Shown here piece after piece: positions 1,630 through 20,000 of a stretch of 20,000 nucleotides of DNA. Location of the stretch: positions 47,518-67,517 of the forward strand of contig JBNGIO010005379.1 of the NCBI GenBank assembly GCA_049999805.1. Reading direction: 5' to 3'. This DNA comes from Folioceros fuciformis (lineage: Eukaryota). Each line of letters opens with the position of its first letter. Position 1 is the stretch's first letter. The position numbers and the translations under genes were made by a program. The notes under the pieces were generated by a model. That model worked only from the letters and a program-made list of their open reading frames with translations. It did not search any database and was not told the origin of the DNA.

Positions 1630-2230
1630 CTTCACAAAATATGGCCTTTTACTAAAAATAAAATGTTTTTATTGTAAATATAATTCAAATAATTTCTTTG
1701 TAAGCTTGTTTTCAATTCTTTTTCGAGCCATAAATGATGATGAGATACAAGCACATGGGATTAGCAATGGGTTAGTGGATTCATAGTACTAAGGGTAGGA
1801 TTTGGGAATTTGTATAATATCATGGCCTGATAGCAATGCTATGGTGCAGTTTACCCAGGGTTGGGGCATGGGCTTGCCTTGGGCTCAATCAAGTTTAAGT
1901 TACATTCTTTTATGCACAATTTAAATTTAATTCTTAATTGATATATGCTTTATTTATTCTGGTATTGATTAATTGATTTATAAATCTTCACTTTTGTGGC
2001 TCATAAAGCTTTTCTTCGACAGATAGCTTAGTTTGGAACATGGACGAACAGGTGACTCTGGCTCCGTGCAGATTGCCTGATTGTGCTGGGCTCCCATCTG
2101 CCATCCGGTTCGAGAAGGAAAAGGTGCCCATTTCTCAGGGCTTGGATGATGCAGGCATGCTGCCTTGTCTAGGATCGGCTCTCCATGTGCAAAGCCAGAG
2201 ACAGGCGGCCCCCGTGACCTCCATGGATTC

Positions 2231-5200
2231 ATGGCTGTCGGGAACGTGGTCATACGTATTCTTGGAAGAGCACCAGCTCAAGTTCAACCTCAATCTCAAG
2301 CTCATGTGCCTTGTAGGAACCAACGCCGACCCCAACTCTTGGCACACAAGCACGCTGCCAGATACAGCAGCACCTGGCCATCAACGCCACAGCCGGATGA
2401 ACCTGGATCTGGTGGCCGGATCCGGTGTGCAGAATACGAAAGGGGAGCCGCCGTTACCCAGCTCTGTGACCAGGGTTATATCACCCAAGCTGTCGAGGCT
2501 CTTGGAGTTCTGGTGCAGACGCGATGCTGCATTTCCAAATCTCTCTTTTCTGCCGTCCTCAAGAAATGTGCGTTCCGAAAGGACCTTGTTCTGGGCCGCC
2601 GAGTTCATGCCTTCGCTGTGAGAACGGGGTACCAATCGGACGCTGTCCTGGGCACCAGCATCCTGCGAATGTACGCCTCTCATGGCAGGTTGCAAGACGC
2701 CATGGATGTGTTTGAGCTGGTTTCAGAACCGGATGCCTTCACCTGGTCTGCCGTAATCTCTGCGCATGCTAAACAAGGCCAAGACAAGCTGGCCGTAGAG
2801 CTTTATCATCGGATGCGCAGGTCCAGCGTGAAGCCTGATGGCCATGTGTTTGTGGCAGTTCTGCAGGCTTGTGCAAGGGGACACGACTTGAAAACGGGGC
2901 AGCAGGTGCATGCTCACCTCCTGGCCACAGGCACCCAACCTGATTGTTTCGTGACCACTTGCTTGGTGAACATGTACGCCAAGTGTGGCCAATTGGAAGA
3001 TGCTCACACACTCTTTGACGGACTCGGACAGAATCAAAAACATGTCGTGACGTGGACTGCTCTCATCGCAGGGTACTCCCAGCAGGGTAGGGGGCAGGAA
3101 GCCCTTCGCATCTACGGCGCTATGCAACGAGAAGGCCTTACTGTTCCCAATTCCGTTACATTTGTGTGCCTTCTGCAGGCATGTTCCAGTGTGGGGGCCC
3201 CAGCTTTGGACAAGGGGAGGCAGCTTCATGCAGAAATCAGGGACCACGGACATCAGGATGATGTCTTCGTGGCCAACAGCTTGGTCAACATGTATGCCAA
3301 GTGTGGCAGCCTAGAGGATGCTCGCAGAGTATTTCAGGGACTTCGCCACAAGGATGTGGGAACGTGGAATGCATTGATAGCTGGGCATGCCCACCATGGC
3401 AAGGGCCAAGAAGCCCTCCGTCTCTACGATGTCATGAAACACGAATGCAGCACTACACCTGATTCCATGACCTTTGTGTGTCTCCTGCAGGCATGCGCAG
3501 CCGTGGGCACCCCAGCTTTGGAGAAGGGGAGGCAACTTCATGTGCAAATTAGGGAAGGAGGACATGAAGCTGACATGTTTCTGGCTAACAATTTGGTGAA
3601 TATGTATGCAAAGTGTGGTAGCATCGAAGACGCTGAGAGAGTGTTCCATGGGCTCCATCAAAGGGATGTGGTCACATGGAATGCCATGATAGCAGGATAT
3701 TCGCAGCAAGGCATGGGCTGGGAAGCCCTTCGTGTCTACACTGATATGCAGGAAGAAGCAAGTGCACCACCGAATTCCGTGACTTTTGTGTGTCTCCTTC
3801 AGGCCTGTGCAAATGTGGGCAGCGCAGGTTTGGAGAAGGGGAGGGAGATTCATGCGCAGATAGCAGAATCTGTACATCAGGCTGATGAATTTGTAGCCAA
3901 CAGTTTGGTGAACATGTATGCCAAGTGTGGCAGCTTGGACGATGCTCAGCGTGTGTTTGATGGACTGCGTAGGAAGGATGTGGTGATGTGGACTGCTCTG
4001 ATTGCAGGTTATTCCCAACAGGACATGGGCCAGAAAGCGCTCCATCTGTACAGTGCTATGCAAGAAGAAGGAACAGCAGTGCCCAACTCCTTGACATTTG
4101 TAAGTCTCCTGCAGGCATGCGCAAGTGTGGGCACCCAAGCTTTGGACAAGGGGAAGCAGATTCATATGCAAATAAGAGAACAAGGACATGAAGCTGATCT
4201 ATTTGTGGCCAACAGTCTGGTGAACATGTACGCAAAGTGTGGCAGCCTGGAAGATGCCCACGCTGTGTTTGACGGACTCACTCAGAAAGACGTCGTTACT
4301 TGGACTGCTCTGATTGCAGGATACTCCCAGCAGAACATGAGCCAGGAGGCGCTCCGTCTTTACGGTGCAATGCAAGAGGACAGCATGGCTGTACCCAATT
4401 CCATGACATTTGGCTATCTCCTCCAGGCTTGTTCAAATTTGGGGACCCCAGCTTTGGACAAGGGGAAGCAGCTTCATGCAGAAATTAGAGCACGAGGATA
4501 TCAGGGTGATTTGTTTGTGGCCAACAGTTTGGTGAACATGTATGTAAAGTGTGGCAGCCTTGAGGACGCCCATAGAGTGTTTGATGGCATGGTGGAAAAA
4601 GATGTGGTCACTTGGACTGCTCTAATTGCAGGGTACTCCCAGCACGGTATGGGGCAGGAAGCCCTTCGTCATTACATTGCTATGCAAGACGAAGGCATCA
4701 CCGTGCCCGATCCTGTGACGTTTGTGTGCCTCCTGCAGGCGTGTGCAAATGTGGCAGCTTTGCACCTGGGGAGGCAGATACATGCACAGATTGAGGAACA
4801 AGGGCTTCACCACCAAGCGTTTATAGCGAGCAGTTTGATTAACATGTATGGAAAGGCTGGGAGCATGGTTAACGCGCAGCAGGTGTTTGATGGCTTGCCG
4901 CACAGAGAGACTGTTGCCTGGAGTGCGCTGATTGCTGGCTACGCCTCTCAAGGACACAGTGAAATAGTCTTTGACTTGGTCCAGAGAATGAGAGACGATG
5001 GCGTGCAGCCAGTTGGCGTCACATTCCTTAGTGTATTAACAGTGTGTAGTCATGCTGGTCAAATGGCCAAGGGCATGGAGTTCTTCGAGGCTATGAGCAG
5101 AGAGTATGGCGTCACTCGCACAGTGGAGCACTACACATGCATGGTGGACCTTCTGGGCCGTGCCGGTCAAGTGGATGAAGCACTGAAGTTGGTGAGCAAA

Positions 5201-5581
5201 ATGCCCGTCGTCGCCAACGCTGCTATCTGGCATACTCTATTGAATGCTTGTCGAAAGTGGAGGAACCTGGAGGTGGCGCGACACGCTTTCGAAGAAGCAG
5301 TGAAGCTAGACGAAAAAGATGCGGCTGCATATGTGCTGATGTTCAATATGTACACCGGTGCCCAGATGTGGGAGCAGGCACAGATGGTACAGTTGAGGAG
5401 GATGAAGGTCAGGGCATGGAAGCAGCCAGGTCAGAGCTGGTGGACCGACATGAACGGAGAGGTTCATAGTTTTTTGGTTGGGGACGACAAGCTCAAACCA
5501 GAATCAAACACGTCTTGCGCTGAAAGAAGCCAGGATGTGGACCAGTCACGTGACCGGGAGGCATATCTGATGTTAGGATGA
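2231..5581 (+). CDS. PLS-class pentatricopeptide repeat protein, organellar RNA-editing specificity factor (E1-E2 + WW-type PG box, DYW domain truncated), ~1116 aa
   Basis: The track ORF starts at a TTG (2165). The first in-frame ATG after the TGA at 2147 is 2231 (MAVGNVVIRILGR...), followed by an Arg-rich presequence-like N-terminus without acidic residues. Motif order is L-S, 7x(P-L-S), P2-L2-S2 (VVTWTALIAGYSQQG / SVTFVCLLQAC / VFVANSLVNMYAKCGSLEDA / VEHYTCMVDLLGRAG), then E1 (AAIWHTLLNACRKW), E2 (AAAYVLMFNMY) and KQPGQSWWTDMNGEVHSFLVGD. There is no HxE or CxxC and no DYW end. The ORF is uninterrupted. Confidence 0.96.
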   Translation: MAVGNVVIRILGRAPAQVQPQSQAHVPCRNQRRPQLLAHKHAARYSSTWPSTPQPDEPGSGGRIRCAEYERGAAVTQLCDQGYITQAVEALGVLVQTRCCISKSLFSAVLKKCAFRKDLVLGRRVHAFAVRTGYQSDAVLGTSILRMYASHGRLQDAMDVFELVSEPDAFTWSAVISAHAKQGQDKLAVELYHRMRRSSVKPDGHVFVAVLQACARGHDLKTGQQVHAHLLATGTQPDCFVTTCLVNMYAKCGQLEDAHTLFDGLGQNQKHVVTWTALIAGYSQQGRGQEALRIYGAMQREGLTVPNSVTFVCLLQACSSVGAPALDKGRQLHAEIRDHGHQDDVFVANSLVNMYAKCGSLEDARRVFQGLRHKDVGTWNALIAGHAHHGKGQEALRLYDVMKHECSTTPDSMTFVCLLQACAAVGTPALEKGRQLHVQIREGGHEADMFLANNLVNMYAKCGSIEDAERVFHGLHQRDVVTWNAMIAGYSQQGMGWEALRVYTDMQEEASAPPNSVTFVCLLQACANVGSAGLEKGREIHAQIAESVHQADEFVANSLVNMYAKCGSLDDAQRVFDGLRRKDVVMWTALIAGYSQQDMGQKALHLYSAMQEEGTAVPNSLTFVSLLQACASVGTQALDKGKQIHMQIREQGHEADLFVANSLVNMYAKCGSLEDAHAVFDGLTQKDVVTWTALIAGYSQQNMSQEALRLYGAMQEDSMAVPNSMTFGYLLQACSNLGTPALDKGKQLHAEIRARGYQGDLFVANSLVNMYVKCGSLEDAHRVFDGMVEKDVVTWTALIAGYSQHGMGQEALRHYIAMQDEGITVPDPVTFVCLLQACANVAALHLGRQIHAQIEEQGLHHQAFIASSLINMYGKAGSMVNAQQVFDGLPHRETVAWSALIAGYASQGHSEIVFDLVQRMRDDGVQPVGVTFLSVLTVCSHAGQMAKGMEFFEAMSREYGVTRTVEHYTCMVDLLGRAGQVDEALKLVSKMPVVANAAIWHTLLNACRKWRNLEVARHAFEEAVKLDEKDAAAYVLMFNMYTGAQMWEQAQMVQLRRMKVRAWKQPGQSWWTDMNGEVHSFLVGDDKLKPESNTSCAERSQDVDQSRDREAYLMLG
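2972..4850 (+). repeat. Intragenic ~312-bp PLS-triplet tandem repeat
   Basis: The ATG of the NMY[AVG]K[CA]G motif recurs at 2972, 3290, 3602, 3914, 4226, 4538 and 4844 (spacings 318, 312, 312, 312, 312, 306). Confidence 0.92.
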
Positions 5582-5941
5582 AAGACGGGGACAGCACCGA
5601 GATGCCCACGTCGTTGAAGAGACATAACTGGACATACGTCCGCAAGTGTTGTGAAGGACTTCCTCCGTGTTTGGTTGTGGCTGTGTTGTTATGTAGAGGA
5701 GAGTCGATGTATCCTCTGAAAGGGTGCAGGGACGGAAGTTGAAGTCGGACAGTTGTGTATGGTACAGGGCACAGCTGAAGGCGGGGTAGCCCCTCTGGCG
5801 CCCAGCAACGGCTGATGACAGACAGTAGAATCTGGAGCCTAACAGGTTGCAACGTCCACTAATCTTTCTATCGACAGCTCCCGCTCATCGCTCACCTGAC
5901 CTGAAGGAAGCCACCATTGTGCATGATGGCTGACAACCATG

Positions 5942-6475
5942 AGCAAGCTGTGTGATCAGGGCCATGGATTTGTCATTTAGGCTGTTGAGGAGGCTTGGGA
6001 ACTTTTGGTGCTTCCAAACAAAGCAGCGACCTGTGTTTCCAAATCCGCCTACTTCACTACTGCCTAATATGAATTTATGAGCACCGTCGTGAAAAGAAGA
6101 GACCAGAAGCGTGTGGGTGTGGGTCACCTTCATGTGGTGCCATTCCATACTTTGGGCTCATGTCAAACAGGCAAGGACAAGTGGGCCTCATTGCATGCAA
6201 TGGGTCCGACCAGATGGTCTAGTCTCGTCTGTTGTGGCCACCCCCTTCCGGCATGTGCAGGGGCATTTGTTGCAGCTGAAAACTGGCCACGAACAGCTGT
6301 ACATGCCTGCTTTCGGGGTTCAGACCAGAGTTGATCCCTTTGTGTGTGACTACACTTGCTTGGTGAACACAGTATGCGCCAAATGCTCGCACACTGTTTG
6401 ACAGGCTAGCACGCGAGCATGTCCTGGCTGGATTGCCCTTCTTAATTCTTATTGCAGGTATTCACAGCACGCCAT
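5942..6475 (+). pseudogene. Decayed partial tandem paralog of the 5' part of the upstream PPR gene
   Basis: Collinear matches to ~2455-3090: KLCDQGH..AVEEAWELLV vs QLCDQGYITQAVEALGVLV; CVSKSAY vs CISKSLF; TFMW...AHVKQ/GKDKWA vs AFTW...AHAKQGQDKLA; an exact 17-mer CACTTGCTTGGTGAACA (6353-6369 = 2956-2972); ATGCTCGCACACTGTTTGAC vs ATGCTCACACACTCTTTGAC; and an LIAG/YSQH remnant at 6448-6470. It has multiple frameshifts, stops and deletions. Confidence 0.85.
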
Positions 6476-6832
6476 GGATATTTTTTCCAAGATGCTCGAC
6501 CACAGTCACGACAATACGGGGATCAGGACAATGCAAGTCACCCTGCGGATCGCACGATGATGAAGACGACACGACCTCGGTCATGTCTGAAGTCACGGCC
6601 CTGGGAACGGGCCATCCACGGCATCAGCAATGGCGGGGTAGGGAACATGGGCTGTGTATCCGGGGCGAAGCGAGCATCAAGGGAATGGGACATGGCCTGG
6701 TACGGAGTGGGACACGCCTCTCGAGGAAATACGATCCCCCGTCCGACGAGCGGAAGACGTTGCGCTCGGTGATGGAGACATGGCCTTACCCGCAGCCGTA
6801 ATAGCCATCGGGTGTCCATGCGAAGACGGTAG

Positions 6833-9800
6833 TCATGCGACAGAAGGCCTGAGCACCGGAGTGTCACCTAACACAGGTAACTCTTGCGAACTAGAAGGTT
6901 TGGTAACATTTTCTGGCTCAGCACCGTCATCTTCTTCTTCCTCTTCACTTTCTGTTTCGGCAAAGTAGTCGATGTTGAACTCGGGACCATCGCCTTCAGG
7001 CATTTCTGGTCCGCATTTGTAGTTCTCATGCCATATCTCAAGACCGGCGTTATCTTTCTCAGTTTTGGCGTCCAAGATCTCGAAGGCATCCAGTAGGAAA
7101 AGTCTCTTATCTACCTCTTTCCTTGTGTCCAAGTGCCGGGCTCTGTCAGCAAGTCGGAGTCCAGCATGCCTGGCCTCCCATGCTATTCTGTGTCGCCTCC
7201 GGTCCACATCCAGCAGTATTTCAGCATGATTTTGCCGAATTTGTTGTCTTCTAGCACGTAGTCTAGCCTCCTTTGCGGCTACCGTGTTGTCAGTGAGAAC
7301 TCGCAACGCGGCTCTCCTTTTAGTGGCGTTCAGGTTATCACAGGCCTCACTGAGACTTGCACATACTTGCACTTCTCTTTCGCTCTCAAGAAAAATCTGT
7401 CTTCTTCTCATCCTTTCAGCGGCGGATTTGGCATCAAGGAACGAGTTGAAGGCATGGTTGCATGCGTGGAGCTCCCATTCTGTGGTCTTGTCTACATATC
7501 CAATTTTGGCCTGCAAGAACTGTCTTTTAGCTTCCCTTTCAGCAAGAGCTGCCCTCCTCTTCTGCCTTTGCCTCAATCTGTCGTTGCACAAGCGAGTTTC
7601 TAAATACGGCTCCGCGGGGTCATGCCTGTCCATCAGTTGTCTCTCCTTTTGCCTGGCCAACTGTCGCTTTCTGCAAAGCGTTGCTTCCTTTATCCTTTCA
7701 ATGGATCTTTGTAACTCCTCTTCTTGCAAGGCTTTGCTTTCTTCTGCTCTCCCGTCGTCACCAACTTGCGCCTTCGCTCCGTCATCTTTTTTCTGCTCAT
7801 CCGGCTTGTCAGATTGGATGAGCAGCCCTTGATCTTGAGGAGCAGGAGCAAGAGTAGGAGTGGAAGATCCATTTGCGTACACCTGCTCTTGGGGTGGACC
7901 CTGCAAAGCAGACTCCTCCTGCCCCTCGGGACTAGTAAGCGTGGTTGGCTGTACATCCATTTGGCTGTCAGGTCGCGCCATGTCTTTTGGTTCCGCTGGG
8001 TTCGTCGAATCTATTTCTGCTTGACCTTTTGCTTTGCAGGATTGTAATCTCGTCTTCATGCGTTTCAAGCCTTTGCTGATGTATTCACAGTTTCTAGGAC
8101 AACAGTGTGATGTTATGGCTGTCATTTTCCTTTTAATCCTGCCCTCCACAGGGCTTGAAGCTGATGTAGGGTCAGGCCCAGGACTGCTGGTGATGGTTGA
8201 AGCGTTTTGTACTGTGGGGGTTTTCTCTGTAGATGTGGTCCTACGAGTGTCCATGGGAGCTTGCGCGTTGGCTATAATCTTGTCATTCTCGCTCTTGAAT
8301 CTAAAAGCCTCCAACTCAGGTTCATTTCCTGCTTGTGGTATCTCGTTGAATGATGTACTTTCCCCTTGCTCCTGGGTGCCATCTGCGAGAGACGGTGGTC
8401 CACTGTTTTCAGTAAAATCACCTTTGGAGAATCCAATTCCCTCTTGCTCCTGGCTCCCAATGACGGACGAACGTCCACTCTTGTTCTTGGAGGTTAGATC
8501 ATCCAAGGCCACTAGAACAAAGCGTGCACGTGAAGTGATTGTCTCCTTGGAACCGTCCGCTCCGACGTCTTCAGTTTTGGTCACGGATGCTCTAGCAATC
8601 ATAATTTCGTTGTCTTGAAGGGCAAAGCTGCTCTTCTGCATTGGGGCATTCTTCTCTTCATTCTGCTCTTGATTTTGCACTGGGGCGACCTGCTCTTGAT
8701 TCTGCACTGGGGCACTCTGCTCTCCTTTCTGCGCCGGGGCACCCTGCCCTTCATCTTCTTCCGCACCCTTAGCTCGCGCACCCTCCAAATGACCTTTCAG
8801 GCTAATAGGCAGGCAACAGCTGGATAGTTTGGGTACATGAAGTGACCGACGGGGGCGCTTTGGCTCTTCTTCTAGGCCTTGCACCGAAGAGTCCCTTAGG
8901 TCATCCCCATGGCTGGAGAATGTCCCAAATGCTGACATGCCTGCCCCTGGGGCAACTTCGTGGGGACCTGCTCCCGGGTCTGCTTCTTGGGTCCCTGATG
9001 TCACAAGTGGACCGTGAGCCTGACCTTTACGGATATTTGCAGAGAGCGTCCCTTGTGCTGTTGTGGCTTTGCTATGTTTGCTGTCAGGTAGGTTAGACTC
9101 GATATGGTTGTCATGCATAGACGTGTCTTCCGTTCTGCCGAGTGCTTTTCTCTTAAACGGGTTACAACATGCTCTTCTATCATCCTTTTGAGTGTGAGGC
9201 ACATCCGCTCCTACACTTGCAGCCGGAGTGTCTGGCGCGTTCGACACAGCAGCTGTCTCAACACCGCTTTGGGTTGGTGGTCCAGTGGATGACAAACCAG
9301 GAAGTGGATCAGGCTGTGCGCCTCCTTCCTTACCATCCTCAGCCTGTTTCGTACCCCGGGGTGCCTTTCTTGTGAAGGGGTTGAAGTATGCTTCTCCATC
9401 GTCTTCCTGAGTTGCAGACATATGTGCTCCTGGACTTGCAGCCTGTGTGTCCAATGCCTTTGACACAGAAGCTTTCTCAAAGCTGCCCTGGTTTGTCGGC
9501 CCAATCGATGACCGACCATGAAGTGGATCAGGTTGTGTACCTCCTGCCGGATCCTGAAAAACGTCACCCACTTTCGTACTCTTAGATACTTTTCTTGTGA
9601 AAGGATTGCAGGATGCTCCTCTCCCGCTGTTATCTTTCTGAGTTCCAGACACATCTACTTCTGGACTCACAGGCTGCATGTCCAACGAGTTTGACACAAC
9701 AATTGTCTCGACATTGGCTTCAGTTTCTGGTGTAGAAGAGGGCAAAGTATGAAAGGGATCAAGCTGTGCATCTCTTTCTTCACCACCTTCAATCTCTTTC

Positions 9801-12800
9801 GTACTCCCAGGTCTTTTTCTTGTGAATGGGTTGCACAATACCCCTCCATCATCTTCCTGAGGTCTGGGCACAATTGCTCCTGGACTTGAAGCCTGTGTGT
9901 CCAATGCCTTTGACGCAGAAGTTGTCTCAACTCTACTTTGGTTTATTGGCCCAATCGATGACAAGCCATGAAGTGGATCAGGTTTTGCACCTCGATCCGA
10001 ATCCTGACCGACTTCACCCGCAGTCGTACTCTCAGATGCTCTTCTTGTGAAAGGGTTGCAGGATGCTGCTCTATCGATGTTATCTTTCTGAGTTCCAGAC
10101 ACATCTACTTCTTGACTTGCAGCCTGTATGTTCAACGCGTTTGGCACAACACCTGTCGCAATATTGCCTTGAGTTTCTGGTGTAGAAGATGGCGAAGTAT
10201 GAAAGGGATCTGGCTGTGCATCTCTTTCTTCGCCGCCTTTCATCTCTTTCGTACTTCCGGGTGGTTTTCTTGTAAAGGGGTTGCACCATGCTTTTCCATC
10301 ATCCCTCTGAGTTCCAAGCACACGTGCTCCTGGACTTGCAGCTTCTGTGTCCAACGCCTTTGACGGTTCACGTGTCTCAGTACTGACTAGGTTTGGTCGT
10401 CCAGTGGATGAAAAACCAGAAAATGGATGAGGTTGGATGTCTCGTTCTTGACTACCTTCAGCCTCGTTTGTACTCCTCTTTGCTTTTCTCGTGAAGGGGT
10501 TGCACCATACCCACTTATCATCCTCGTGAGTTCCAATGATATGTGCTCCTCGACTTTCAGCCGGTGTGTCCAGTGTGGTTGACACATCGGCGGATTCAGC
10601 TGTCTGAGCACTGCCTTGGTTTGGTCGTCCAATCGATGGCAAACTAGGAAGTGGATTAGGTGGTATGTCTCCTTCCTGACTACTGATTGTCTCTTGTGTA
10701 CTCATAGGTGCTTTTCTCGTAAATGGGTTGCACCATGCTCTTTCATCATCCTTATGAATTCCAGACACATCTTCTTCTGGACTTGCAGCCGGTGTGTCGA
10801 ACGCGTTTGACAAAGCTTCTGTCTCAACACCGCCTTGATTTGGTGGTCCAGTAGATGACGTACCCGGAAGGAGATTAGGTTTTGATTCTTCCTCCTGACC
10901 ACCTTCGGTCTGTTTCATACTCTTGGGTGTCTTTCTCGTGAAGGGGTTGCACCTTGTTACTCTATCATCTTTTTGTGTTTCGATCACATCTGTTTCTGGA
11001 CTTTCAGCCGGTTTGTCCAATGCGTTTGCGAGAATTGTTGTCTCGACACCGCCTTGGTTTGGTCCTCCATCGGATGGCAAATTAGGAAGTGGATCTCTTT
11101 GTATGTTTCCTTCTTGACCACCTTCAGTTGCAAAGGCCGACGATGCAAACATTGGCATCTGATCGGACTGCAAGTTGCTATCGTGATCTACATCTGATGG
11201 TTGCTGCAGGTTGGTGGATGGTTGAGACAGGAGAGGTGGATTAGCCTGTTGGCTATGTGTCACGCCCTGGTTTTTTGGCCACCCGCTGTTATGCAGATCG
11301 CTACCACTCACCTCAGAAGCTGGCAGGTTTGACTTGTATGCACTTGATTCACGTGTGCTGTCTGTAGGTGCCCCTGCTGTTCTTGCCAAAATGGTTCTCT
11401 CCTCTTTCGTTGTCTCAAAATTTTCACTGTCACTGGATTGATGCGTACGTATGTCAGAAACAGTTTGGTTGTCATGCACACAAATGTCCTTTATGGTTGT
11501 CCTGTGGTCTCTTCTTTTGAAGGGAAAGCAACAGACTTGTTTGTTGACCTCCTGGTGTGGTCGTTCTCCAATCAAAACAGCAAATGCCTGTGTGTTGACA
11601 GGGGATGCATCCACAGCAGCACCAGTTGCCTTCATTATTGCAAAGTCCGGAATGAGTGGTCCTGTGGATGCTAGAGTGGTAGCCTCATCTTGTGGTGCTG
11701 CATCTCCCGTATCACCTTTCTCAGTCAGAGCGCTATCTTCTCCTCTTGTTGAGGGGTAGCAGCGTGATGCTGTTGCGCTATCTCCTCTAGGATCCTGATG
11801 TTCAAGGATCGGAACACATGCAGCTGAAGATAGTGTTCCTTTGGTGAACACAGGTGGGCTTGTGCCAAGAACCTTGTCGACTTTGTCAATCTCCTCATTC
11901 TTGTCTCCTTGTATGCTACTAGCTGCCATGACGCTTTTATCATGTGTTGGTTCCTCTTCTGTTGCGTCAGTTTCATTTGGCTGTACGCCAGCATGTAAAT
12001 TGCTTGATAAGCCAGCAGAGTGAAGGGCACTTGACGCTCTCGAGGTTGAGGCTGCTGGTGATTCTGTTGTCTGAATGATGTCTCCAGTTGGGTCTACCCT
12101 AGTCAATTCTTCTAGAGGTGAAGAGAGGTGATGGATCTGTATTCCATCTGGATCTGCGGAAATTGGGTTGCCATCAGATTTGGTTTGCATATCTCCAGGG
12201 AGCAAAGTCGGAGGTACCTTTTTGTCCACGATAGCTTCCGAGAAAATGGTCGTCGATTTCCTCATCTTAGTAGAATCACTCACGTCTTGATCTTCCAGTG
12301 GGTAAACAGAGGTTTTGTGGTCTTCGAGAAGAATACTGTGTGATTCAAAGAGTACACCCTGTGGAAGTTTGACATCGGTATTTGTTGTTGGCTGTGTTGT
12401 GGGTGCGATTTGCGATGATCTTCCTCTTCCGTTGAGTTCAATTATGCTTTCTATCATAGTTCCTGAGTTGTCCTCCACATCCATGAATATAAAACCTTGC
12501 AAGTTGTCATTCTGGTATGTATCTTGCACTGCTGTCGTGGGTCTTCCTTCATCTGTTATTTGAGAGGCATTATCCATTTTTTCCTTATCAGTACATGGGT
12601 CACGTGTACCGTAGCATTCACTCATCTTCGCTTGGCCTTCATTGGAACCTGAAGGTGGTTCGTCCTCAGGAATAATTGGATCTAAAATGCCCTTAGTTGT
12701 TGTTACTTCATTTGATTTCTGTTGCTCCAATTGATTCTGTATGGGGAGCTCAGGTGTGTATAGGACCTGAGCTTGAGGGGGCTGGACAGACATGGCAAAG

Positions 12801-15800
12801 GCTGAATCAAGGGTGCCCAAAGCTCCATCATCAACTGTCTGATTCTCTAGTATCAGTGTGTTAGAAGGGCAAGCTCCATTAGTATCTGCTTCATTGATGC
12901 TCGGTTTGTCTAGCATTTGCTCAATCTCTGGCACTTGGTTACAAGTGGTTGGGATGTCAGTGGAAGTCCTACTGATCGTGCCCCCTTGAATGCTTTTAGT
13001 AAGCTTCTCCACAAAGCAGAAGGGACAGGGTCCTGGAACTTGACATAAACTTCTGTCTCCCTTCTTGTCTTCGCTTCGTTTAGCAATGCCATCATTACTC
13101 TCTTTGGACGCCTTTCTACAACCATCTCCCTGCTCAGAAGGGGCAACCTCGTTCTGTCCTTTCTCTACGCATGCAAACTCTTGACTCTTGATTTCAGTAG
13201 CTGTCGTGTTCTCTGTGCTCATATGCGGACTCCCGTCTCCCTGTTCTTGTGAGATGTCGGAGGTCAACACCTGGCATGTGGTTTGTTCTCCCTGATGGTG
13301 GTCTTTGCTTAGGTCGGCTGATTCAATATTGCCAGCTCTTGAAGGCGAGCCTTCGCCAAGGAGATTGCCTCCATGGACCTCTCTCTCAATCTTAGCAACT
13401 TCATCATGCCTCCGCTGTGCCGAGTGCATAGCACAATTTTGACTTTTGGGTTCATCACGTGCCCCATGTGTTGTGCTCGTAGAACCCTCGCCAATTCGTG
13501 TGTGACTTGCTTTTGAAACTTGTATACGCGACACACGAGCCTCAGTTTGGTCTTCTTGTGTGTTTAGTAATATGCCTTGTTCACCTATGTTTTCTGCTGA
13601 ATGTAAACTCGTACCGATCTCTGCGGGCACCTCTTTTTTTCCGATAGGTTCCAAGTCCTCACTCTTTTCTGGAGCCAGGTTGATTGAATGTAGTCTAGTG
13701 GGTTCATCAGAACGCAGGTGTGAGCTTCCTTGTACAGGACGACTCGCTGGAATTCCGGTTTGCTTTTTCGGAATGTTTTTAGTCACTGTATCATTCGCTG
13801 GTGAAGCAAACATGGACAAGGTTTTGGTACTATTTCCATGTGGTGAAGGTGTTGATGGCTCTGATGGTGGGACTATGGGTTTTCCAAGGACTTCTGTGTC
13901 CTGTGTAGACTTCTCCTTCTCGTAAGAAGGGGGCGTCGCCATTGCCACTAAAACGAAGTGAGATGTCAGTACGCTGTGAACCATATCTGTGGACGTAATT
14001 GCTTCTGCTATGATTTTGTCAGCTCCTTCGACCTCGGTAGGCAATTTTGGGTCTCCTGAATCAAATGCCGTGGTTGACGTCGAAGCTCTGGCAATCATAT
14101 GTGCCTCATCGTCTTCAATTGCGGCTTCGTTTCTGTACTCGACGAGCGTCTCCTGTCCGTGTTGATTGCGTCCAACTTGATTAGAGATTGTATCGTGACA
14201 TGATGAATCTGATTTTTCCTTGTCCGTAGCCAAAGATAGTCTTGAGTGGCGGTCTGCTCCAATTGTTTGAGGGTCCATGTGCTGAGCACGCTCTATTTCG
14301 GACGATTGCTCTCTTTGGTGAGTACTGGGTCTGTCTGGGATACCATGTCTTCCAAAATTCGCTTCCTTGGCTCCATATACCTGTGGTATGATGTCTATGG
14401 ACGGCTGATGATCATGATCGCTCTCTCTTTTTTGCTTGGTAGTTATTAGCTCAGCATCGTTGCCAGGCGGTGTGGTCTCTTTGGTGCCTTGATGATCGCT
14501 CCCCCTTACTTCTTGCGTATTTAGCTCGTCCGTGTGGCCAGAATGCTGAGGAGTGCCGGAGTCGGCCTGGGTGATACTTTGTCTCCCAGTCTTGTAGAAG
14601 GAGCTACTCACTTTAAGCAGACCACCCTCAGTGATAGATAGGCCAGAGATAGAGAAACGTGGCTGCATTTCCTTACTATCAAGCTCAAGAATAGGCATGG
14701 GTACTGGACTGGTGCCTGGTTTGCTTTCCCCGGCTTGCTGAGCTCCGAAGGATATCTGGACAATCTCGTCCATGTTCACGTTGTCACTCTTCTTCTGGTC
14801 ACTCTTCACGTGGTCTCTGCCTGGCGGTTTTTGTAACATGTGATGGAGAGGAGAAACCTCTGAAACTGCTCTCTCACCTTCAGAGGCACGTTGGAGAATG
14901 GGTTTCTCTTTATCATTGACCCCAGAAAATGCGGTTTCTAATGACTTCGCACGTAGTGCGGGCCTCATCTGCGTGCTAGAACGCATGATCCTGCTTCCTT
15001 GAGAAGAGCCGGCATCCTGCCTTGGTACCGTGCTGCTTTGTTCAACCTCATGCAGTCTGGGCACAATTGCTGCATGCTGCTTCTCATGTTCTTCACCTGT
15101 TGTTGTTTTGTGACTTGCTTGTTCCAAAGTTTTGCACCCTGAGTATGCAATTCGCACACCACTGTGGAAGGCCATGGCAACATGATGTCCGCCAGATTCC
15201 ATCTTCTCAACTAATATTGCGTCGGCCCTTGAGGCAATGCCAGGTTCAGCACCCTGATGCGTCGCAGTGTGACAAGTTAGTTGCCCAGTTATGCAAGACT
15301 CGCTCGTCTTTCTTAATCTTGTTGACGAGTAGTGATTTCCCGAGCTGGCTCTGCTACGCAGGTTACTTGTGTTCATGGTAGAAGTAATGTGCTCTCTATC
15401 GAGATGGTTCATGTCTTGTGTGCTTGCATTATGGTATGCGGACTCGAGTAACTGTGAATCCAGGAGTGTGGATCTTTCTTTTTTGGGAAATTTAGAGAGA
15501 AGACCATCGCTGGGACTTGTCTCGCCATAAGATCCGTCCCGGATGATCCCTCTCGACAAAGTGGGCTCAGTGGATGATATCGAGCGCTTGCCACCCATGG
15601 TCTCTCGCTGGGCTGTCGTGTTCCGTGAAACGGACAATGAAGGTTCCTGGCCTCCTCGCAAGTTAACACTGCGGCCTGCTTGACTTGTGCCCTCGGGACC
15701 ATCTACCTCAGACTTTGAAGACCTCTTTGTACCATTCGATGAAAGGCTAGAGCTGTCGGGATTCAAACTTGGCAACATGGTCCCGGATGTTGAAGGTATA

Positions 15801-16561
15801 GAGGTTCTTCTTCGTCCTTGATGTCCCTGTGTAGGTGAATGATCTGTGATGTATTGACGTGGTTCATCTTGTGTTTCCTCAACTAATACGTCCTCAAGCT
15901 CCATTTCCTTCATGTTCTTTGGTTTTGGCACGACAATGAGGTATGTTTTTTTTTTGTCGGCATCGTTGAATAGTTGACCTTGTGAAGATCCGGACCAGGG
16001 TGGATCAGTAATTATTTCGTGTACCTTACTCTTCGTTTTTGACGGTGTGGGGTGTGTAACTCGTGATTCTTTGTCTCCTATTGTTTGACGATGTTTTTCG
16101 TCCCGTGGCATCCCGCTCTCCTCTTTCTTCTGGTGCCGTGTATCTTGGGGTGAGATGATGCTGCTCCCAGTTGTAGTAATGGTTGTCGCGAACAATGTCG
16201 TGGTTGAGGCGCTATGATGTGATGCTTCCTCCAAATATTGTGCTCCACTAGTTCCTGTGTGATTGTGCACTGCCAAATTCTCTGTGCCTATCTGGGATGC
16301 TCTCGTCAGACTAACATAGCCTTCAGCGGCATGGACGTCTTTCTTGATGACCTCAGCTACTTCACTAGTGCGTGAAGTGTGAGCTTCCTCCTGAAGCTTG
16401 GAGAACATATTTTGGATCATGTTGATCTCGTAGTGGTTGTGCACTGGTGAGCTGGCGGTTCGTGGTGATGTCACTGTGCTTGTAATGTCAAGCTCGAAAT
16501 CCATTTCAACGAATTCTACTCCAGGGCACTCCTCTGGAGCATCGTTTTCGGCGTCTCCCAT
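6833..16561 (-). CDS. Giant uncharacterised protein (3242 aa): mostly disordered, with an NPF-motif tandem-repeat region, a C-terminal Arg/Ala/Leu-rich helical (coiled-coil-like) domain and an acidic tail
   Basis: A 9729-nt stop-free frame, far beyond chance length. Repeat-unit length differences are all multiples of 3. Composition is S/T/G/P/E/D/Q-rich, with no long hydrophobic segment or obvious signal peptide. I recognise no enzymatic or transposon domain. The true start is uncertain (see findings). Confidence 0.9.
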   Translation of the reverse strand: MGDAENDAPEECPGVEFVEMDFELDITSTVTSPRTASSPVHNHYEINMIQNMFSKLQEEAHTSRTSEVAEVIKKDVHAAEGYVSLTRASQIGTENLAVHNHTGTSGAQYLEEASHHSASTTTLFATTITTTGSSIISPQDTRHQKKEESGMPRDEKHRQTIGDKESRVTHPTPSKTKSKVHEIITDPPWSGSSQGQLFNDADKKKTYLIVVPKPKNMKEMELEDVLVEETQDEPRQYITDHSPTQGHQGRRRTSIPSTSGTMLPSLNPDSSSLSSNGTKRSSKSEVDGPEGTSQAGRSVNLRGGQEPSLSVSRNTTAQRETMGGKRSISSTEPTLSRGIIRDGSYGETSPSDGLLSKFPKKERSTLLDSQLLESAYHNASTQDMNHLDREHITSTMNTSNLRSRASSGNHYSSTRLRKTSESCITGQLTCHTATHQGAEPGIASRADAILVEKMESGGHHVAMAFHSGVRIAYSGCKTLEQASHKTTTGEEHEKQHAAIVPRLHEVEQSSTVPRQDAGSSQGSRIMRSSTQMRPALRAKSLETAFSGVNDKEKPILQRASEGERAVSEVSPLHHMLQKPPGRDHVKSDQKKSDNVNMDEIVQISFGAQQAGESKPGTSPVPMPILELDSKEMQPRFSISGLSITEGGLLKVSSSFYKTGRQSITQADSGTPQHSGHTDELNTQEVRGSDHQGTKETTPPGNDAELITTKQKRESDHDHQPSIDIIPQVYGAKEANFGRHGIPDRPSTHQREQSSEIERAQHMDPQTIGADRHSRLSLATDKEKSDSSCHDTISNQVGRNQHGQETLVEYRNEAAIEDDEAHMIARASTSTTAFDSGDPKLPTEVEGADKIIAEAITSTDMVHSVLTSHFVLVAMATPPSYEKEKSTQDTEVLGKPIVPPSEPSTPSPHGNSTKTLSMFASPANDTVTKNIPKKQTGIPASRPVQGSSHLRSDEPTRLHSINLAPEKSEDLEPIGKKEVPAEIGTSLHSAENIGEQGILLNTQEDQTEARVSRIQVSKASHTRIGEGSTSTTHGARDEPKSQNCAMHSAQRRHDEVAKIEREVHGGNLLGEGSPSRAGNIESADLSKDHHQGEQTTCQVLTSDISQEQGDGSPHMSTENTTATEIKSQEFACVEKGQNEVAPSEQGDGCRKASKESNDGIAKRSEDKKGDRSLCQVPGPCPFCFVEKLTKSIQGGTISRTSTDIPTTCNQVPEIEQMLDKPSINEADTNGACPSNTLILENQTVDDGALGTLDSAFAMSVQPPQAQVLYTPELPIQNQLEQQKSNEVTTTKGILDPIIPEDEPPSGSNEGQAKMSECYGTRDPCTDKEKMDNASQITDEGRPTTAVQDTYQNDNLQGFIFMDVEDNSGTMIESIIELNGRGRSSQIAPTTQPTTNTDVKLPQGVLFESHSILLEDHKTSVYPLEDQDVSDSTKMRKSTTIFSEAIVDKKVPPTLLPGDMQTKSDGNPISADPDGIQIHHLSSPLEELTRVDPTGDIIQTTESPAASTSRASSALHSAGLSSNLHAGVQPNETDATEEEPTHDKSVMAASSIQGDKNEEIDKVDKVLGTSPPVFTKGTLSSAACVPILEHQDPRGDSATASRCYPSTRGEDSALTEKGDTGDAAPQDEATTLASTGPLIPDFAIMKATGAAVDASPVNTQAFAVLIGERPHQEVNKQVCCFPFKRRDHRTTIKDICVHDNQTVSDIRTHQSSDSENFETTKEERTILARTAGAPTDSTRESSAYKSNLPASEVSGSDLHNSGWPKNQGVTHSQQANPPLLSQPSTNLQQPSDVDHDSNLQSDQMPMFASSAFATEGGQEGNIQRDPLPNLPSDGGPNQGGVETTILANALDKPAESPETDVIETQKDDRVTRCNPFTRKTPKSMKQTEGGQEEESKPNLLPGTSSTGPPNQGGVETEALSNAFDTPAASPEEDVSGIHKDDERAWCNPFTRKAPMSTQETISSQEGDIPPNPLPSLPSIGRPNQGSAQTAESADVSTTLDTPAESRGAHIIGTHEDDKWVWCNPFTRKAKRSTNEAEGSQERDIQPHPFSGFSSTGRPNLVSTETREPSKALDTEAASPGARVLGTQRDDGKAWCNPFTRKPPGSTKEMKGGEERDAQPDPFHTSPSSTPETQGNIATGVVPNALNIQAASQEVDVSGTQKDNIDRAASCNPFTRRASESTTAGEVGQDSDRGAKPDPLHGLSSIGPINQSRVETTSASKALDTQASSPGAIVPRPQEDDGGVLCNPFTRKRPGSTKEIEGGEERDAQLDPFHTLPSSTPETEANVETIVVSNSLDMQPVSPEVDVSGTQKDNSGRGASCNPFTRKVSKSTKVGDVFQDPAGGTQPDPLHGRSSIGPTNQGSFEKASVSKALDTQAASPGAHMSATQEDDGEAYFNPFTRKAPRGTKQAEDGKEGGAQPDPLPGLSSTGPPTQSGVETAAVSNAPDTPAASVGADVPHTQKDDRRACCNPFKRKALGRTEDTSMHDNHIESNLPDSKHSKATTAQGTLSANIRKGQAHGPLVTSGTQEADPGAGPHEVAPGAGMSAFGTFSSHGDDLRDSSVQGLEEEPKRPRRSLHVPKLSSCCLPISLKGHLEGARAKGAEEDEGQGAPAQKGEQSAPVQNQEQVAPVQNQEQNEEKNAPMQKSSFALQDNEIMIARASVTKTEDVGADGSKETITSRARFVLVALDDLTSKNKSGRSSVIGSQEQEGIGFSKGDFTENSGPPSLADGTQEQGESTSFNEIPQAGNEPELEAFRFKSENDKIIANAQAPMDTRRTTSTEKTPTVQNASTITSSPGPDPTSASSPVEGRIKRKMTAITSHCCPRNCEYISKGLKRMKTRLQSCKAKGQAEIDSTNPAEPKDMARPDSQMDVQPTTLTSPEGQEESALQGPPQEQVYANGSSTPTLAPAPQDQGLLIQSDKPDEQKKDDGAKAQVGDDGRAEESKALQEEELQRSIERIKEATLCRKRQLARQKERQLMDRHDPAEPYLETRLCNDRLRQRQKRRAALAEREAKRQFLQAKIGYVDKTTEWELHACNHAFNSFLDAKSAAERMRRRQIFLESEREVQVCASLSEACDNLNATKRRAALRVLTDNTVAAKEARLRARRQQIRQNHAEILLDVDRRRHRIAWEARHAGLRLADRARHLDTRKEVDKRLFLLDAFEILDAKTEKDNAGLEIWHENYKCGPEMPEGDGPEFNIDYFAETESEEEEEDDGAEPENVTKPSSSQELPVLGDTPVLRPSVA
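8663..8722 (-). repeat. 27-bp coding microrepeat (APVQNQEQ x2 plus degenerate neighbours)
   Basis: CTGCTCTTGATT[T/C]TGCACTGGGGC occurs at 8663 and 8690; the protein reads EQSAPVQNQEQVAPVQNQEQNEEKNAPMQK. Confidence 0.85.
9140..11130 (-). repeat. Coding tandem array of nine 219-228-bp (73-76 aa) units, each with an NPF motif
   Basis: NPF codons have their + strand left edge at 10940, 10721, 10493, 10274, 10049, 9824, 9599, 9374 and 9155 (spacings 219, 228, 219, 225, 225, 225, 225, 219). The consensus is about EGGQE.D.QPDPL...SS.GP.NQG.VET...S.ALDT.AASP...V.GTQ.DD....CNPFTRK. Confidence 0.95.
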
Positions 16562-16630
16562 CTCTGGACACCTCTTTCGTTTGATGTCACCAGTGAGCTC
16601 CTGCGATATGGCGTCAGCCTTGTCGCCAAT

Positions 16631-16825
16631 TTAACGCTTGATAACCACTTTCTGGCCCAGTTGAGGATTGGCTTTGCCAGGTCGGACATTGGCTTGGCCA
16701 GGATGGAATGGATTGGCATGGCTTTCCAATCCTGATTTCATCTCGGTGCTTGTGTCCTTTGAGATCTGCTGGGTGGCCACATCCGTGTGGCCTACAAGTA
16801 CTCCGGTGACTTGATTGAACAACAT
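16631..16825 (-). other. 64-codon upstream ORF in frame with the giant ORF, separated from it by a single TAA
   Basis: The ATG at 16825 is 264 nt (88 codons) upstream of the ATG at 16561. The only in-frame stop between them is TAA at 16633-16631, followed by open codons IGDKADAISQELTGDIKRKRCPE-M. The uORF itself contains an NPF (SHANPFHPG). Confidence 0.6.
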
Positions 16826-17380
16826 TGAGGTTGTAGATTAATACATGGGATCTCCACTCACCTCAGATGGAGACAGACCTCAAATGAGTTCTATGGGTAA
16901 CAGAAGGGGACTGGTCAAAGTACACCTCTACGTTATTGGATACAAAAGCAAAAAACTAATAAACCTGACTTTGGATTCCTTTGCATGTTACCGCGTAAAA
17001 GAAATAGTATTTTATTTCCATGTTTCATATTTCATATGTCACGCTCATCAATTGAATATGGATAATCGAACATAGAAATATAAAATAAATAAATAAATAA
17101 AAATTACTTTATAAGTTATTTTTAATAATAAGAAACGATAAAATAATAGTGTTTTATACAATAAGCATGTAGAGTAGCAATATTAGGAAAAAAAATCCAT
17201 GAATTGGTAAGGTGGTTTGTGAATGATTGTATTTGATTGTAATGTAAGAAAAATTAGAGAAATCCAACCTTTGATCGGATATGCTTGTGAACTATAATGA
17301 TAAACATCATCACAATGATGAATACATTTTAAAATACTTGTTTGTATCACATTTACTTATTCTTATGATACTAAACTCTA

Positions 17381-17470
17381 TGAAATGATCATTATTTTTA
17401 GTTGACAAAGTGAAATGATCAGTATTTCTAGTCGACAAAGTGAAATGAGCAGTATTTCTACTCGACAAAG
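17381..17470. repeat. 30-bp tandem repeat, 3 copies
   Basis: TGAAATGATCAGTATTTCTAGTCGACAAAG-like units start at 17381, 17411 and 17441. Confidence 0.92.
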
Positions 17471-17860
17471 TATTATGTATTGTGGACTTATTGTACACAA
17501 CCCTAGTAATTTAATGAAGAAGAAGAATTAAGCTTCAAATCTGCCTCACATAAACCTTAACTTAATGCAAAAGAAAACTATACCTTAAAGTTCTCCTCAT
17601 GTTTCTCATAGTGTTTCAAGTAGTCTCATATGTTGTATCAAATGAAATGATCCAAAGAATGCACTAGTTTCATATGTTGTTTCAAGTAGAGACAGCTGGT
17701 GTACAAATATGATATGATAAGATGCACCAGTGTTATGTTCCAACCTAACTTTTTTGTCACTAATTTTTATTCCTAAATAACCTTTCCAATCCAAACTTCA
17801 TGCTATTAGCTACAACGATCACACTATGATCTAACTTTGTTCCTTAGAACCCCTTGGGTC

Positions 17861-17960
17861 CTTCTATTATCATGGGGAATCATAGGTATTTGCCTGCTTC
17901 TAGTGATACTACTTCTATTGTCATGGGAAATCGTAGGTCCTCGCTTAGATTCTAGTGATA
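17861..17960. repeat. ~51-bp degenerate tandem duplication
   Basis: CTTCTATT[A/G]TCATGGG[G/A]AATC[A/G]TAGGT...TTCTAGTGATA starts at 17861 and 17912. Confidence 0.8.
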
Positions 17961-17998
17961 TGTTACGAGTTAATTTCATACAACTTTAACAAGAAAAT

Positions 17999-18098
17999 NN
18001 NNNNNNNNNNNNNNNNNNNNNNNNNNNNNNNNNNNNNNNNNNNNNNNNNNNNNNNNNNNNNNNNNNNNNNNNNNNNNNNNNNNNNNNNNNNNNNNNNN
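17999..18098. other. Assembly gap (100 N)
   Basis: Exactly 100 N, the usual placeholder for a gap of unknown size. Adjacency across it is not guaranteed. Confidence 0.99.
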
Positions 18099-19296
18099 AA
18101 GTTGGATCAACAAGTTAAGGAAAGCTTTAACACACAATTGCTGTACATCTAGTGATTCAAAAAATTAAAATAATTTTAATCATAAATGATTTCAATCATA
18201 AAAGCCAATGAGGAAAGTTGGATTCAATAGCTCGTCGTAATCAGCCAATTTTGTAATATTATCTAAAATAAATAAATTATTAAAAAAACAATTTTGTGCC
18301 TACCAATTATCTATTGGACAGAAGAAATAAATAGATCTATTTAACTATATAAATTAACTCTAATAATATCTAATATTCACATTCCCACAAAGTTGCAAAT
18401 GGGAAAGAAAACTAAAATGTTTGAAATAATAAGTAGAAAACAAAAAATTACATACAAAACAAAAGCTTGTAAAAAGATCCTACAGACATAAAAATAAATA
18501 TACATACACTAGTAATTAATACTTATGCATATTACAATGTGTGGGTATAAGAAACTTCGGTTAGACCACATCGAGTATAAGTAAGGTTTTATTTAAATAT
18601 TAAATATAATTTAAATATATGACTTTTCCCATGAATAATATAAGATTTTTCAATCATAGTGGATACATCTAATAAATACAGAAAAATCCCAATACTATAA
18701 AATATCTATATAAAGGTTACATTGTACAATGTTAAAAGGTGAACCATATTATGACCCATTCAATATATATGCGATGTATAAAATTTAAGTAAATAATAAT
18801 CTACATTTACAATAAAGGGTTAGTGTTAATTTGGAAAAACCTTATAGGAATTCTTACTAGGATCCTCTAGAACAACTATAGCAACATAAAATACAATGGT
18901 TACATGTGAGAATGCCCTATGGGCAATAAGGGCAACATGGAATCTTATTACTACAAGCTAGAAAGATGTGGTGGGATGGAACATAATAAATGTCGAATAT
19001 TCCATGTAGGCATGGTTGTGGATTTGCTTTTTCCTTGCAAAGGTCATGGGAAGAGAAGATGCAAAAGAGTTTAACTAGATTCTTCAACATTTTATTTCTC
19101 AGTTTTATTTTTATTTCAAATTATGTATCTCATATAAAATATCATTATTTTTAAATAGGAAAAAATATTTAAATATAATATGTATAAATATATTTCTTGA
19201 ATGTGACATGACAAGGAGTGCTCACTCCTTCACAACTAGAGAGCTGAATAGCCTGGAAATGATGACCAACATGTTGTGCAAGAAATTTTAGATGAC

Positions 19297-19985
19297 AAAC
19301 TATTGAGCTTTACAAGGCAAAGTGTTAATGATGCTTTGAGTTTTCAAAAGCTTGGTTTAGCAAGGCAATTTGGGTTGCTTTATGAGATGTATAGTTTCAA
19401 ATCAAAGTTGCCTACTTTCAACAAAATATGCTTGTGTTCTAAATCATTTCAGTTGGATGTTAAGTAAGATGATTCGACTGAATGACAAGAAAACGTTCTA
19501 AGTAAAGTGTTTGGACCTTGTGAATCATTTATTTTAAGCTTCTTGCACTACTTCAAATGGTTGATTAACTCGAAGAAGAAGAAGAATTACGAAGAATGAC
19601 AACATCACTTGTTGGTAGGGCATAAATTAAAGGTCACAATGTTTAAGTTCAAGTCTAGCTACTACAATGCCAAGAAGCAAGTATGTAGTCATATCAACTA
19701 ATAAGAAATTAGGAACTATGAAATGGCATCTCATCCATTGGATGTGATTAGTTGGTCTGTCAAGTATTGATGCAATTCCCATTAAGCTGTTTGTGCAATT
19801 GATAGGTGGATTGGCTTCCATTGCTCTAATCTTTCAACACATAATGATTTTTTTGGAATGACAAACCATTCTAGCAAGTTGAATGAAGTGTAACATGTAA
19901 TGTAATTTGCTGGCAAGTATGGAACACAATTTACTTCTAACATTAGAAGGGCTTAGTGTCATTGGGTATGGAGTTCCTGAAGAGA
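19297..19985 (+). pseudogene. Probable highly degraded receptor-like (RLK/Pelle) protein kinase domain relic
   Basis: Collinear remnants across frames: LLSFTRQSVNDALSFQKLGLARQFGLLYE (~F(S/T)xxELxxATxxF..LGxGxFGxVY, 19300-19386); LDVK* and ENVLSKV (~VAVK, EFxxEV, 19453-19509); GTMKWHL (~GSLxxHL, 19712-19732); ISWSVKY (~LSWxxRL, 19747-19767); HCS..THNDF (~HRD, 19819-19851); TQFTSNIR and IGYGVPE (~THVSTxVxGTxGYxAPE, 19924-19981). It has many stops and frameshifts. Confidence 0.5.
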
Positions 19986-20000
19986 GAAGGGCTTCGTTGG

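Follow-up and report, generated by a model that had tools for sequence, protein, structure and literature searches.

A nine-unit array with a selected seven-residue motif in a giant disorder-prone protein of Folioceros fuciformis, tentatively read as repeated membrane anchors

The window analysed here is a stretch of 20,000 nucleotides from Folioceros fuciformis (assembly GCA_049999805.1, contig JBNGIO010005379.1, positions 47,518 to 67,517). Its minus strand contains a giant gene, a single reading frame of about 9.7 kb without a stop codon, open from stop to stop between window positions 6833 and 16630 and translated from the first ATG (at 16561) into 3,242 amino acids. This giant protein (P0001) matches no Pfam family and has no transmembrane segment, the highest mean hydropathy over 19 residues being 1.16. 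Judged by eye, it lacks a signal peptide, and its acidic amino-terminus is unlike a plastid transit peptide. In its carboxy-terminal half it contains an array of nine repeat units, each with one copy of a short motif centred on Asn-Pro-Phe (NPF), and further on a predicted helical rod (Table 1).

The assembly is backed by contigs from three public runs, representing at most two samples, one of which may be its source. DNA depth over the array is 11.7–16.3 in run X2, which does not indicate many collapsed copies. Contigs of run X1, which we guess to be RNA, span positions 5416–16979 in three overlapping pieces, none of the joints displayed being intron-like; X1 depth is zero in 7 of 30 bins (1–2001 and 17343–20000), where both DNA runs have depth. 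An unspliced transcript fits this hint from a single run. At positions 12753–12764, contigs from X1 and X2 deviate from the assembly by four substitutions, one base less and one base more, leaving the net length the same; this is an allele or a local assembly error, inside the open reading frame and outside the array.

The nine NPF motifs and the synonymous variation of their codons had been noted in a first-pass annotation of this DNA, together with a regular spacing. These observations hold: the motifs are where they had been placed, on the minus strand and in one open reading frame, four codons are used for the proline, two for the asparagine and two for the phenylalanine, and the spacings (73, 76, 73, 75, 75, 75, 75 and 73 residues, in order) fall in the range of 73–76 amino acids that had been given. 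All nine NPF tripeptides of the giant protein are located between positions 9155 and 10948, compared to 0.16–0.17 expected from composition, the tandem copies not being independent events. When the non-motif columns are used to build a tree, units 5 and 7 are sisters (bootstrap 100), as are units 6 and 8 (99), in agreement with a 450-nucleotide period detected by Tandem Repeats Finder, a higher-order duplication. Three array units were modelled as disordered in a single-sequence model, with a predicted local distance difference test (pLDDT) score of 48.9 and no secondary structure.

Table 1. Features of the giant gene and its neighbour in the window
Feature	Position	Strand	Remark
Giant protein (P0001), single open frame	6833..16561	-	3,242 amino acids; disorder-prone composition
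Tenth, Asn-less site CCFPFKRR	11510..11533	-	amino acids 1677-1684; upstream of the array; possibly a degenerate unit
Array of nine repeat units of 73-76 amino acids	9134..11140	-	amino acids 1808-2476; 34-71% amino acid identity, 61-86% nucleotide identity
Motif 1, CNPFTRK	10931..10951	-	
Motif 2, CNPFTRK	10712..10732	-	Trp before
Motif 3, CNPFTRK	10484..10504	-	Trp before
Motif 4, CNPFTRK	10265..10285	-	Trp before
Motif 5, CNPFTRR	10040..10060	-	
Motif 6, CNPFTRK	9815..9835	-	
Motif 7, CNPFTRK	9590..9610	-	
Motif 8, FNPFTRK	9365..9385	-	Cys replaced by Phe; Tyr before
Motif 9, CCNPFKRK	9146..9169	-	
DPF in unit 5	10202..10210	-	sister of unit 7; not selected
DPF in unit 7	9752..9760	-	not selected
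Di-cysteine CCLP	8807..8818	-	amino acid 2582; further candidate acylation site, putative function
Di-cysteine CCPR	8093..8104	-	amino acid 2820; further candidate acylation site, putative function
Predicted helical rod, Arg/Glu-rich	7019..7759	-	about 245 amino acids (2935-3181); model pLDDT 80.2, predicted template modelling score 0.27
PLS-type PPR gene with E motif	2150-5581	+	intronless, 1,143-amino-acid frame; DYW not matched

Conservation extends beyond the NPF tripeptide. Among the nine units, the residues of the sequence C-N-P-F-T-R-K are kept in 8, 9, 9, 9, 8, 9 and 8 units respectively, the ninth lysine being an arginine. All nine cysteines in the 669 residues of the array are within the motifs. 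Three of the nine tryptophans of the giant protein immediately precede a motif cysteine, and a fourth is located two places further up. The linkers between the motifs, about 68 residues each, are neutral-to-acidic and of nearly constant length across the array. After each motif the net charge is +1 to +4, in line with the basic patch of the first-pass annotation. An acidic patch had also been assigned before each motif; two aspartate columns there are indeed kept (in nine and eight units), but over the 12 residues in front of the motif the net charge is negative in only four units, zero in three and positive in two. Beyond the main array, a 27-nucleotide tandem repeat (8647–8751, minus strand, 3.3 copies) encodes Gln-rich units of nine amino acids in the same frame. 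Two segments of the giant protein, around residues 815–880 and at 2648–2700, have alike short strings (MIARAS, ITS and FVLVA), a similarity that is not significant (phmmer independent E-value 0.052).

When the nine units are aligned and each column is scored for synonymous and nonsynonymous change, the motif is found to be under selection at the protein level, as had been proposed, and the linker to be neutral. Pooled over pairs of units, which are not independent, the ratio of the proportions of nonsynonymous and synonymous differences (pN/pS) is 0 for NPF, 0.058 for the seven residues together, 0.135 for C, T, R and K by themselves, and 1.004 for all other columns. Neutral evolution was also simulated on the unit tree to assess this conservation, giving P-values that are approximate, with columns treated as independent and the commonest residue of each taken as ancestral: 1e-5 for NPF, 7e-5 for C, T, R and K jointly and 7e-10 for the whole motif. 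The asparagine, kept in all nine units, has a neutral P of 0.015; the proline is likewise kept in all nine. Of the 65 non-motif columns, five have a P below 0.1, as expected by chance; three are invariant. The linker sequence drifts neutrally. The selected unit is thus the seven-residue motif C-N-P-F-T-R-K and not NPF alone. The proposal that NPF is the motif stands insofar as NPF is invariant and conserved far above the linker (0 against 1.0); it is weakened in that its neighbours C, T, R and K are selected too and that the tenth site has no asparagine. As no orthologue of the array was found in the databases searched, the conservation evidence is that among paralogous units of one array.

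These data also bear on the idea that the array is a functionless, recent tandem expansion, its motif conserved through gene conversion or by chance. The absence of array relatives from the databases searched would fit such an origin, as would the neutral linker with its three columns that are just as invariant. However, pS is 0.67 in the motif and 0.33 outside, the opposite of homogenisation, which argues against gene conversion; the joint neutral P and a frame that remains open over 9.7 kb also speak against it, and we consider this origin very improbable.

DPF, reported twice in the first-pass annotation, does occur twice, the other seven units having DPL (four units), NLL, NPL and HPF. It had been interpreted as an AP-2 ligand, which the data do not support. 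The DPFs are confined to the sister units 5 and 7 and are one base change away from DPL, so that from their sequence they are taken as one event. In this column aspartate is found in six, proline in eight and leucine in six of the nine units; DPL has a joint P of 0.04, with no single column significant. Other AP-2 motifs (DPW, FxDxF and WxxF) are all absent from the giant protein, as is DLL, and a role as ligand of the AP-2 alpha appendage is not supported. Clathrin-box-like strings number three, compared to 0.9 expected (P 0.06), and are not clearly enriched; none is within the array.

The first-pass annotation had taken the array for a putative multivalent EH-domain ligand. A nine-valent ligand of EH/Pan1 (of the TPLATE complex) or of EHD proteins, which would scaffold endocytic sites or co-condense with them, is consistent with an NPF invariant in nine of nine units (pN 0), located in a region modelled as disordered in three of them. 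The genome encodes two EH/Pan1 genes (three matches among eight candidates), and a suboptimal NPF is reported to bind EPS15 at raised valency (PMC12808100). Complex prediction with the EH1 domain of this genome and a 34-residue peptide of unit 4 gave weak support, with a score of 0.34 compared to 0.03 for the best of three controls, a contact agreement between runs of at least 65% and a partner pLDDT of at least 46. Of 78 solved complexes 51 attained the mark used, as did 2 of 108 mismatched pairs; passes at 0.60 or below comprised 5 of the 78 solved complexes and all four passing mismatches. For peptides the score is uncalibrated and, since solved NPF–EH complexes exist, the support may reflect structures memorised by the model.

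The flanks and the spacing of the motifs, on the other hand, do not suit the known EH ligands. The EH1.1 domain of AtEH1 is described as requiring both NPFs of SCAMP5, with an acidic region between them (PMC8144573), and the SCAMP of this genome has two NPFs at a distance of eight residues, the first followed by an acidic stretch. In the array, each NPF is followed by a net positive charge and the next NPF is about 75 residues away. EHD1-type domains are reported to favour acidic flanks (PMC13282721), so that the array has neither the plant EH1.1 form, a close NPF pair with an acidic spacer, nor the EHD form, with acidic residues after the NPF. Both plant EH domains are reported to bind anionic lipids via basic residues (PMC8144573); the modelled EH1 segment of this genome has a neutral net charge. 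Selection on C, T, R and K would also be left unexplained. An EH-ligand array is less likely than not in our estimation; the earlier proposal is partly supported, with the encoded EH/Pan1 genes, the rescue of weak NPFs by valency and the weak complex prediction in its favour. Of the two EH/Pan1 genes, one (locus L021, contig C6303, 1–2736, minus strand) encodes both EH domains and a coiled coil in one, apparently intronless, frame of at least 912 residues, while the second copy (L023) seemingly has introns.

Upstream of the array, a tenth site resembles the motif without its asparagine. A profile of the units matches it with an independent E-value of 0.0037, driven by the motif; a motif-free profile gives no match. 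Its flank is weakly similar to three of the nine units (z 2.1–2.8), with no similarity to the other six (z −0.8 to 0.8), and homology to the array units is only suggestive. The pattern CC-x-P-F-[TK]-R has two matches in the whole genome, both in the giant gene, compared to one match for a control pattern. Within the giant protein, P-F-x-R-[KR] occurs ten times and C-x-P-F and NPF nine times each, so that, by these counts, the invariant part of the motif appears to be its Pro-Phe-basic core; with the tenth site included, phenylalanine and arginine are present in ten of ten, a preceding cysteine in nine and asparagine in nine. Cysteine pairs number four in the giant protein, where 0.56 would be expected.

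The reading that we favour, while holding it tentatively, is that the motifs act as a series of S-acylated, aromatic-basic membrane anchors, borne on a long tether that ends in the predicted helical rod. The motif cysteine would be S-acylated, the phenylalanine, in four units with a preceding tryptophan or tyrosine, would insert into the bilayer, and the Arg-Lys pair would bind anionic lipids. The linkers would be spacers of near-fixed length. The giant protein would in this way be stapled to the cytosolic face of a membrane at up to ten points, presenting the carboxy-terminal rod and a long disordered amino-terminal arm as a tether or scaffold. Such anchors combine a conserved cysteine with aromatic and basic residues next to it, in proteins that lack a transmembrane segment and a signal peptide, and the array does so too, as far as the signal peptide can be judged by eye. 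RIN4 is reported to be anchored via cysteines and the phenylalanines that follow them (PMC3661340), and D6PK via acylated CXX(X)P motifs that recur alongside a polybasic patch (PMC10881395). The membrane-anchor reading is also favoured by the location of all array cysteines in the motifs, by the clustering of aromatic residues there, by the basic residues after all nine motifs, by the cysteine pairs in excess of expectation, by the selection on C, T, R and K independently of NPF, by the sole loss of the cysteine (in unit 8), where a phenylalanine beside a tyrosine keeps the site hydrophobic, and by the tenth site, which has two cysteines and no asparagine.

Several observations weigh against it. 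The asparagine and proline are invariant in all nine units and are not obviously needed for acylation; the prolines of D6PK are reported to be dispensable (PMC10881395). In the Arabidopsis S-acylome, as described, a clear consensus is absent (PMC12236689), and strict conservation of seven residues looks more like the imprint of a fitted protein pocket. In unit 8 the cysteine is gone, yet NPFTRK is retained, its codons differing at two synonymous sites from those of the sister unit 6. The C-xx(x)-P signature of D6PK is found only in motif 9, the tenth site and the CCLP di-cysteine; the other eight sites of the array have C-x-P or no cysteine. The relation of the tenth site to the units, finally, is no more than suggestive. 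Taken together, the invariance of the asparagine and proline, the dispensable D6PK prolines, the lacking acylation consensus and the cysteine loss in unit 8 favour a fitted pocket, which may be that of an EH domain or of another reader.

Next in probability, narrowly ahead of the EH ligand and itself rather doubtful, is a short linear motif for some protein pocket or polymer surface, read as an Asx-turn NPF with a basic tail. The array would then be a nine-valent sticker-and-spacer scaffold, for example on a cytoskeletal filament or a repeated coat, with the cysteine in the binding surface. Seven consecutive conserved columns (joint neutral P 7e-10), near-constant spacing and neutral linkers are what such a scaffold would have, and the cysteine-to-phenylalanine change in unit 8 would be tolerated. 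Receptors of NPF other than EH domains exist (SEC23/24, SSBP2-LDB1 and POLE2), the specificity of POLE2 being reported to be set by the flanks (PMC12808100). However, none of the results points to a partner, the tenth site lacks the asparagine required for an Asx turn, and SxIP strings are not enriched (7 compared to 4.4 expected).

The anchor, pocket and EH readings are not mutually exclusive. A dual-purpose motif, both an S-acylated staple and an NPF turn, is improbable but can be formulated: depending on its acylation state, the chain would either lie on the membrane or offer up to nine NPFs to EH/Pan1 of the TPLATE complex. If true, a hornwort-specific, disordered protein of 350 kDa would serve as a nine-valent scaffold for endocytosis or for contact sites, with a lipid switch. 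No plant precedent for a lipid-switched NPF scaffold was found in literature searches.

The carboxy-terminal rod was modelled as three long helices, for which no fold match was found. It is shared with one paralogue in the same genome (contig C4038, 29–31% identity, E-value 1.9e-10), which has no NPF, no cysteine pair and no Cys or related motif. The paralogous frame (locus L008, 3897–6275, plus strand) is followed 34 nucleotides on by a second frame of 704 amino acids (6310–8424, plus strand), containing Trp-rich repeats of about 34 residues (W...E.E...FEASLCADRE-like); the two may belong to a single gene interrupted by a stop or a short intron. By reading of the sequence, a copia-type retrotransposon frame is located at 3–1937 of the same locus. 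The only relative outside this genome is a 57-residue database fragment (P0002), 57% identical to the extreme carboxy-terminus of the giant protein. The residues P, A, T, H and Q do not occur in it, and of its 24 mismatches 8 are consistent with C-to-T changes; it thus resembles an assembly of base-converted reads from a related plant, and entries of this kind may hide true homologues.

The neighbouring PPR gene and the giant gene are convergent, and both 3' ends are covered by one X1 contig (5416–9657). The LCIB_C_CA family has two matches above the cut-off in this genome, both on one contig, and none in 14 control genomes. LCIB is reported, among land plants, from hornworts only (PMC8075897); its exons and the PLS-type PPR genes thus fit what is probably a hornwort genome. 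Non-coding tandem repeats are located at 1–133 (36 nucleotides), 742–902 (53 nucleotides) and 17381–17471 (30 nucleotides), the second being a genome-wide repeat, since DNA depth is high there. Upstream of the window, a pyruvate dehydrogenase E1 beta-like frame (locus L010, 1–864, plus strand) and several further coiled-coil and low-complexity frames can be recognised by reading of the sequence.

With its nine paralogous units, the array constitutes a natural mutational scan, in which neutral linkers expose a seven-residue motif. This motif, in four spellings, was not found in a full-text literature search covering mainly open-access main texts, nor was such a protein found in the titles and abstract openings of the literature on hornwort disordered repeats and plant NPF ligands. 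If it is an acylated anchor, multi-point internal S-acylation would staple a very long disordered protein to the membrane; binding to EH/Pan1 would instead make it a plant EH ligand that has basic flanks and a valency of nine, which bears on the nucleation of TPLATE condensates. Its importance is limited by an apparently narrow distribution and by a function that is putative; the peptide is short and easy to test.

In the way it works, the array resembles a known type, disordered scaffolds with multivalent arrays of a short motif; it does not show the features tested for AP-2 ligands, plant double-acidic-NPF ligands and the D6PK signature, and it is therefore assigned to none of these classes. 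EPYC1 is a sticker-and-spacer repeat linker, and hornworts have pyrenoids. Linkers of this type share with the array a short conserved motif at fixed spacing in a disordered chain; the amino-terminus of the giant protein, however, is not transit-peptide-like, and the seven-residue motif is unlike what we take to be the Rubisco-binding motif. Mammalian SYNJ1 and MICAL-L1 are multi-NPF ligands of EH domains and, like the amino-terminus of plant SCAMP5, share with the array several NPFs in a disordered region, and multivalency. The array differs from them in its nine tandem copies about 75 residues apart, with a cysteine before eight of the nine and basic residues after; SCAMP5 and EHD1 ligands have acidic flanks, and the giant protein has neither a transmembrane nor a folded endocytic domain. 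The middle domain of D6PK and other AGC1 kinases has repeated Cys...Pro elements beside basic residues in a plant protein without a transmembrane segment, as does the giant protein. In the array these are mostly C-x-P, dispersed every 75 residues instead of clustered, and there is no kinase domain; acylation, reported for D6PK (PMC10881395), is putative in the array. RIN4 has one anchor, at its carboxy-terminus, and the giant protein, in which Pfam matches no NOI domain, would have ten, all internal. Like the anchor of RIN4 and other NOI proteins, the array has a cysteine or cysteine pair shortly before a phenylalanine, often with an aromatic residue in front.

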